Of a stretch of 64,000 nt of DNA, positions 41,810 through 41,935 are shown piece by piece. Origin of the DNA: Escherichia coli (GTDB taxonomy: Bacteria > Pseudomonadota > Gammaproteobacteria > Enterobacterales > Enterobacteriaceae). The position numbers were made by a program, and so were the translations under genes. How positions within the stretch are numbered: position 1 is the stretch's first letter; each line of letters begins with the position of its first letter. The notes under the pieces are model-generated. The model made no database searches. It had not been told where the DNA came from and saw only the letters and a list, made by a program, of their open reading frames with translations. Where the stretch lies: assembly GCF_003334405.1 (NCBI RefSeq), contig NZ_QOWM01000003.1; one strand, given 5' to 3'.

Positions 41810-41935
41810 TTACTTGTGTTGTACCGAAGCACTCTGTTCAGGTGGCTGATAGTTGTCAATGTGACTCGCCACGCCAAGAAGAATGACTGAAACGACAAGA
41901 ACGATCCAACCTGTTAATTCAATAAGACGATTCAT
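41810..41935 (-). CDS. blr: Small membrane protein Blr, 41 aa
   Basis: MNRLIELTGWIVLVVSVILLGVASHIDNYQPPEQSASVQHK is a single TM helix; the ORF-track entry 41810..42010 is a 5' over-extension. Confidence 0.8.
   Translation of the reverse strand: MNRLIELTGWIVLVVSVILLGVASHIDNYQPPEQSASVQHK

Follow-up and report, generated by a model that had tools for sequence, protein, structure and literature searches.

Blr of Escherichia coli K-12

Blr of E. coli K-12 (b4409) is known from the literature as a small single-pass inner-membrane protein tied to the cell-division machinery. Septal localisation, interaction with division proteins and a change in beta-lactam susceptibility on deletion are credited to Karimova 2012 and Wong 2000 in PMC10470546 and PMC7648144, and many of its two-hybrid partners may be false positives (PMC7648144). 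Blr is cleaved by the intramembrane protease RseP both in vivo and in vitro, and N-terminally tagged constructs of 41 aa behave as membrane proteins (PMC10470546). A 41-residue protein is what the title of Wong et al. 2000 describes, as that title is cited in PMC12350097. Orthologues from other Enterobacteriaceae have the same hydrophobic helix, the same HIDNYQPPE motif and the same site beside a divergent ydgJ gene.

Identity of the locus and anatomy of the protein

The gene analysed here lies at 41935..41810 on the minus strand of the window, a stretch of 64,000 nucleotides of E. coli DNA. As annotated it consists of 41 codons and a TAA stop (41810..41935), and its translation is MNRLIELTGWIVLVVSVILLGVASHIDNYQPPEQSASVQHK. 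A mechanical list of open reading frames reported instead a 66-aa ORF on the minus strand (41810..42010), which encloses blr and starts with a TTG codon. For the identical 126 bases the RefSeq label is 'blr: division septum protein Blr', with a length of 41 aa. When the segment 41300..42200 was compared with E. coli K-12 MG1655, 0 mismatches were found over 901 bases, and the 41-aa products were identical. In MG1655 the gene occupies 1704551..1704676 (protein YP_025303.1), and the neighbours are the same in both: add, ydgJ, blr, cnu/ydgT, ydgK and rsxA. The NCBIfam model NF033231 (small_Blr) matched residues 27-66 of the 66-aa ORF with 90 bits, against a curated cut-off of 40 bits, and the Pfam model PF24673 (Blr_divisome) matched residues 26-66 with E=5.2e-25. 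From the DNA identity, the RefSeq mapping and the family profiles it follows that the feature is the already known gene blr, as the first-pass annotation had recognised, and that its biology is ordinary. Since both profiles cover residues 26/27-66 only, they are uninformative on the part further upstream.

With the same 901 bases as the query, the region (annotated ydgJ / blr / ydgT) was found in 5425 of 5426 complete E. coli genomes. Strain B2C carries an IS1 within the ydgJ-blr-ydgT stretch; in the K-12 derivative NZ_CM170063 the match spans only 57% of the query and no blr is listed. No RNA family of Rfam and no defence-system profile of PADLOC matched at the locus, and a sequence search of the PDB with Blr matched no solved structure.

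The window's Blr has the traits of its family, namely a length of about 40-50 residues, a single hydrophobic helix and, C-terminal to it, a short polar tail. The helix LIELTGWIVLVVSVILLGVA, located by the hydropathy maximum and by column conservation, is encoded at 41867..41926 (minus strand). Hydropathy reaches 2.46 over 19 residues at LIELTGWIVLVVSVILLGV, and the polar tail follows. Directly after the helix comes SHIDNYQPPE (41837..41866, minus strand), the best-conserved portion of the protein; among 15 proteins and 71 distinct DNA sequences there is no variation, or almost none, at H, I, D, N, Y, Q, P, P and E. The family motif, A-[S/N]-H-I-D-N-Y-Q-P-P-E, is thus present in the window, and we infer from its conservation that this is the part contacting partners outside the membrane. 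The computed average masses of the unmodified protein are 4556.2 Da for 41 aa, 5043.9 Da for 45 aa and 5790.6 Da for 51 aa.

Conservation of the start codon

Besides the annotated ATG at 41935 (41 aa; MG1655 1704551), four in-frame start codons lie upstream: ATG at 41947 (45 aa), ATG at 41965 (51 aa; MG1655 1704521), TTG at 41995 (61 aa) and TTG at 42010 (66 aa). The codon at 42010 had been called an upstream ATG in the first-pass annotation, which is incorrect; the ATGs upstream and in frame are those at 41965 and 41947. The four codons ATG TGG GCT GTA (MWAV) occupy 41936..41947 on the minus strand, and initiation at 41947..41945 (MG1655 1704539) gives a Blr of 45 aa that begins MWAV-MNRL. 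In K-12 the ATGs at 41947 and 41935 are both intact and stand 12 nt apart.

The codons at these two positions were compared across 75 loci, namely that of the window and 74 loci at species level, gathered by scanning one genome for each species. The codon equivalent to 41947 was ATG in 74 of the 75, the sole exception being Citrobacter amalonaticus S646, which has AAG there together with an intact downstream ATG. At the annotated start the codon was far more variable (ATG 29, ATT 22, ATC 13, TTC 7, TTT 2, ATA 1 and GTC 1). ATG at that position was limited to Escherichia, Salmonella, most Citrobacter and Pseudescherichia, and elsewhere the codon specified Ile, Phe or Val. With Ile, Phe or Val where the E. 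coli annotation starts, the Blr proteins of Enterobacter, Lelliottia, Leclercia, Kosakonia, Phytobacter and others must start four codons earlier. In 28 of the 75 species no in-frame ATG, GTG or TTG lies upstream of the 41947-equivalent ATG before a stop is reached; with no usable start further upstream, that ATG is the only one available in nearly all species. On a neighbour-joining tree built from 570 nt of ydgJ, parsimony required 1 change for the upstream methionine and at least 8 amino-acid changes (M/I/F/V) for the annotated position, the root of which was reconstructed as non-ATG.

Variation of the kind expected in coding sequence begins exactly at the upstream ATG. Over codons -3 to -1 relative to the annotated start, mean entropy was 0.42 at second positions and 1.26 at third positions, a low-second, high-third pattern that the core of the gene shows too. 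Codon -1 always encodes Ile, Val or Leu (entropy 0 at the second position, 1.68 at the third), and codon -2 always encodes a small residue. Ribosome-binding sites were also compared. Among the outgroups, Kosakonia, Phytobacter and two Enterobacter species have a strong Shine-Dalgarno site, AGGGAG or AAGGAG (-7.4 to -8.7 kcal/mol), that stands 10-12 nt ahead of the upstream ATG and 22-24 nt ahead of the annotated position. Pseudescherichia, with both ATGs present, likewise has its strong site placed for the upstream one.

Distant homologues were obtained by a profile search of 1.8 billion representative proteins. Those beginning MENVFNRIVELIGW, MSSSFSRILQMAGW and MNSVLTRIVELIGW all start at the equivalent methionine and adjoin a ydgJ-like oxidoreductase gene; their N-termini read M-x-x-x-[F/L]-[N/T/S]-R, with Phe or Leu at the 'Met1' position of E. 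coli. These proteins have 45-51 aa, carry the motif as HHIDNYQ or NHIDRYE and retain the ydgJ-like neighbour. In the four distant loci that extend past blr, a glycoside hydrolase family 1 gene and not cnu comes next, and in two of these four a promoter-like motif, TTGCTG-17-TAGCAT, is found 31 nt before the ATG.

Judged from these comparisons, the start that the family has conserved is at 41947, four codons upstream of the annotated ATG, and gives a protein of 45 aa; the 41-aa boundary is not secure.

Start codon use in K-12-type E. coli

The first-pass annotation had placed the start of the product at the internal ATG 41935. Current annotation agrees with it, but the comparison does not establish it, ATG being found at that position in 29 of 75 species and at the 41947 position in 74 of 75. 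Under the model that we propose, translation of blr would begin at one or both of the two ATGs 12 nt apart. The ATG at 41947 would be the ancestral start, giving the 45-aa form MWAVMNRL..., and the ATG at 41935 would be an internal methionine specific to a lineage (Escherichia, Salmonella, most Citrobacter and Pseudescherichia) from which initiation is also possible. We put at about even the chance that K-12-type E. coli initiates at 41947, alone or together with 41935, and that the 45-aa form is made. The odds are equally balanced that the 41-residue Blr of the textbooks is four residues short, native K-12-type Blr being wholly or partly the 45-aa form.

A dual start motif, with two closely spaced in-frame starts in a small membrane protein, is a feature of the S gene of phage lambda; work on that motif is among the references of PMC4909307. 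The blr gene resembles it in having two ATGs a few codons apart at its N-terminus, and any difference between the two forms of Blr could be confined to the cytoplasmic tip, where the longer one has four more residues (WAV and a Met), all uncharged. The use of both starts in blr would be a prediction from sequence, and the likeness is an analogy only.

The strongest competitor, to which we give slightly less than an even chance, is that the annotation is right for E. coli. Translation would then start only at 41935, and the ATG at 41947 would be a vestige, a small regulatory start or a start-stop. The best evidence for it comes from about 418 complete genomes of the O157:H7 type, which read ATG TGA GTT GTA ATG at this site and keep the 41-aa ORF intact. 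The TGA directly after the upstream ATG makes the long form impossible in these genomes, and their 41-aa protein (WP_001296096.1) is unchanged from that of B2-type strains. C. amalonaticus S646, in which the upstream ATG has been lost and the downstream one kept, is a second such case, and the two suggest that the 41-aa form may be sufficient. The O157 allele could, however, be one of reduced function, or its translation could end at the TGA and restart 6 nt downstream; because blr is non-essential, a weakened allele is conceivable. In the leader of E. coli O157:H7 OK1 (equivalent to 41947..41936), a minimal start-stop at the ancestral start is accompanied by a change of the Ala-to-Val type. 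The two substitutions fall within 9 nt, and the aligned part of the blr coding sequence is the same as in B2 strains.

The Shine-Dalgarno sequence of E. coli also speaks for the annotated start. The first-pass annotation had proposed such a check for each candidate ATG, and the outcome was divided: the E. coli site favours 41935, the strong outgroup sites fit 41947, and neither 41965 nor 42010 has one. An E. coli-specific AGAGAG lies 11-12 nt before the ATG at 41935 and scores -4.7 kcal/mol, compared with -3.1 kcal/mol for the upstream ATG. This derived purine-rich stretch (ACAGAG or AGAGAG in E. coli, -4.7 kcal/mol) abuts the upstream ATG and is therefore too close to act as a ribosome-binding site there, so its placement would favour the annotated start. 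In Pseudescherichia, by contrast, where both ATGs are also present, the strong site serves the upstream one. Another candidate, the GGA of the ATGGAT in the leader, scores -3.1 kcal/mol but lies 13-19 nt from the upstream ATG, and it was rejected. The description of Blr as a 41-residue protein and the membrane behaviour of the tagged 41-aa constructs, cited at the outset, are in line with the short form as well.

Conservation within the species that have both codons points the other way. The upstream ATG is kept in 28 of the 29 species with ATG at the annotated position, though nearby bases of the leader vary. All within-genus differences in the codons between the two ATGs are synonymous: in the dual-ATG clade, 6 of 6 differences in codons -3 to -1 were at third positions (TCA/TCG, GTA/GTG, GCA/GCT, TCT/TCG, TCT/TCC and GGA/GGG), a small sample from nine nucleotides.

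Structure predictions did not distinguish the two ATGs, since the opening energies were 12.7 kcal/mol for 41947 and 13.3 kcal/mol for 41935, and the blr leader folded no better than shuffled sequence (z = -0.31). The literature searched on retapamulin, Onc112, tetracycline, INRI-seq, N-terminomics and the Salmonella small proteome gave no start-site data for blr. The entry for blr in one published Salmonella table consists of a length of 126 nt and expression values only, and a full-text search with Blr peptide strings returned nothing relevant.

Returning to the dual-ATG model, the start in Escherichia may have been shifting: from the ancestral 45-aa start, a second ATG would have been gained downstream, and the long form would then have been lost in O157:H7.

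Predicted promoter and the longer reading frames

The ydgJ-blr intergenic region was aligned for 13 species of Escherichia, Salmonella, Citrobacter, Enterobacter, Lelliottia and Leclercia. Two blocks, CTTGC and GTAA[C/A]ATT, were invariant, and the spacer between them varied in sequence while measuring exactly 17 nt. The blocks are inferred to be a sigma-70-type promoter, with a predicted -35 hexamer TTGCTG at 42005..42010 and a predicted -10 hexamer TAACAT at 41982..41987, both on the minus strand. Across the larger set, TTGnnn-17-TAA[A/C/T]AT was present in 62 of 75 loci, with a spacer of 17 nt every time, and ended 31-42 nt before the 41947-equivalent ATG. The motif, predicted from its conservation, stayed below the threshold of a consensus promoter scan (7/12 consensus match). 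The promoter that the scanner did report, ATGTCA-16-TATGAT at 42179..42152, was rejected, its -10 not being conserved even within Escherichia. If blr is transcribed from the conserved motif (-35 at 42010..42005, 17-nt spacer, -10 at 41987..41982), its mRNA would begin near 41975 (MG1655 about 1704511). The literature searched contained no mapped 5' end or transcription start for blr.

In E. coli TOK-001 the sequence upstream of CTAAGTAACAT has been replaced, the insertion lying at CTAA between the predicted -35 and -10 (about 41991). The replacing sequence resembles what we take to be an IS5 terminal repeat.

Initiation at the ATG at 41965, giving a Blr of 51 aa (MDQSREMWAVMNRL...), is very unlikely. 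In favour of this ATG, no other AUG precedes it on the predicted mRNA, and from it the frame runs open into blr in 35 of 75 species; NCBI annotates many orthologues in this way, in Salmonella and Citrobacter at 51 aa and in Enterobacter at 53 aa, and models of both lengths are common in public databases. In the other 40 species, including all five non-coli Escherichia, the ATG is missing, gives way to AAG, lies in another frame or has its own stop after it. The ATG heads a leader element, ATGGATCAA (41957..41965, minus strand), which has the form A[T/A]GGAT[A/C]AA, with GGAT invariant in the intergenic alignment, and is conserved across genera regardless of its frame relative to blr, that is, as nucleotides and not as coding sequence. 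Apart from the 35 species in which it is in frame and open, the element heads a mini-ORF of 3-5 codons with its own stop in 11 of 75, carries AAG instead of ATG in 9, is out of frame in 3 and is absent in 17. Codons -10 to -5 contain stops and show no three-base periodicity of variation, although their variability is inflated by a 6-nt length difference between clades. Both differences between two Salmonella subspecies in the 51-aa extension are non-synonymous (K/Q and S/L). No Shine-Dalgarno site precedes the ATG at 41965 (0 kcal/mol), and the predicted leader before it is only about 10 nt. In E. albertii and its relatives the element becomes a mini-ORF of five codons, and the TAG that ends it runs directly into the ATG of blr (TAGATG). 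A role as a mini-uORF, as a standby site or as a regulator site is conceivable for the element.

The 66-aa ORF had been considered over-extended from the start, and the comparison bears this out. Its TTG at 42010 opens the conserved -35 hexamer, and the 61-aa version starts at a TTG inside the promoter spacer (41995); with the transcription start predicted near 41975, both codons would lie in promoter DNA and off the message. Immediately 5' of the 41947-equivalent ATG, a TAG is present in five non-coli Escherichia (E. albertii, E. whittamii and three other divergent Escherichia genomes). Where these sister species read ACATAG, B2 and O157 strains have ACAGAG and K-12 has AGAGAG, so that E. coli has the long frame open solely through a change of its own from TAG to GAG. 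Among the 51-, 61- and 66-aa models we found none that combines an extension conserved as coding sequence with a start codon on the predicted mRNA. That the full mechanical ORF is real, with 66 aa from the TTG at 42010 or 61 aa from that at 41995, is scarcely credible: the frame is open in E. coli and both models are deposited for hundreds of contigs, but the 66-aa start has no Shine-Dalgarno site, its codon would precede the transcript, conservation does not reach into the extension, and both family models (Pfam and NCBIfam) are confined to the Blr part. On the comparative evidence the 66-aa (and 61-aa) extension is an artefact, and the 51-aa and 66-aa forms are excluded as conserved products.

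Flanking sequences and neighbouring genes

According to the RefSeq annotation, blr in the window sits where the family usually has it, with ydgJ divergent from it and cnu/ydgT downstream. In the 74 species-level loci ydgJ was divergent from blr in all 74, cnu was downstream in 69 and ydgK was present in 71. Two hairpins directly follow the blr stop codon on the minus strand (41762..41809), at 41809..41792 and 41791..41765, with a short U run after the second. The region folds at -28 kcal/mol (z = -2.0), and the inner stem was also picked up by a pattern scan. E. albertii retains the stem, but beyond Escherichia the region is not conserved. The second hairpin (41791..41765) is a possible weak intrinsic terminator.

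Further blocks stood out in the alignment between ydgJ and blr. TTAACTTAAGTCAAA, at about 42073..42087, is common to Escherichia and Citrobacter, and GAAATCGTTCCC is common to Salmonella, Citrobacter and Enterobacter and absent in Escherichia. Both are possibly regulator sites or belong to the ydgJ promoter. The reading frames of the neighbours were also called longer mechanically than in the annotation: ydgK (40796..41260, minus strand) with 154 aa from a TTG compared with 146 aa, and ydgJ (42139..43218, plus strand) with 359 aa from a GTG compared with 346 aa starting at 42178. At the 3' end of ydgJ (43198..43256, plus strand), the Rfam family STnc390, a Salmonella sRNA, gave a sub-threshold match of 23 bits (E=0.08; gathering score 50), which is probably due to chance or to a terminator.

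In one public protein of 81 aa, MWAV-Blr is joined in frame, at the upstream ATG, to an N-terminal part that resembles what we take to be the C-terminal region of adenosine deaminase; the fusion suggests a deletion allele joining add to blr in some genome.

Public annotation and significance

The exact E. coli Blr sequence has been deposited with five different N-termini: 41 aa on at least 1000 contigs, 45 aa on 21, 51 aa on 111, 61 aa on 223 and 66 aa on 303. Across genera, 'division septum protein Blr' is annotated at 41, 45, 51 and 53 aa, and the annotated N-termini vary despite the same gene architecture. The general point of the first-pass annotation, that the boundaries of small proteins are often mis-set, is borne out by these inconsistent deposited lengths together with the N-termini of the orthologues. 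Its observation of blr within an overlong ORF is therefore confirmed, and its interpretation is partly supported.

As blr is already known, the value of the analysis lies in the accuracy of annotation. A rule for the family can be given, which is to start the protein at the methionine of M-x-x-x-[M/I/F]-N-R; the longer models of 66 and 61 aa are predicted to begin in promoter DNA. The revision of the start is a correction, modest and testable, and brings no new type of system. Should the 45-aa form be made in K-12, the native N-terminus would be missing from constructs, synthetic peptides and N-terminal fusions designed on the 41-aa sequence, and the O157:H7 allele, able to give only the short form, would be a natural variant of a division-associated protein.
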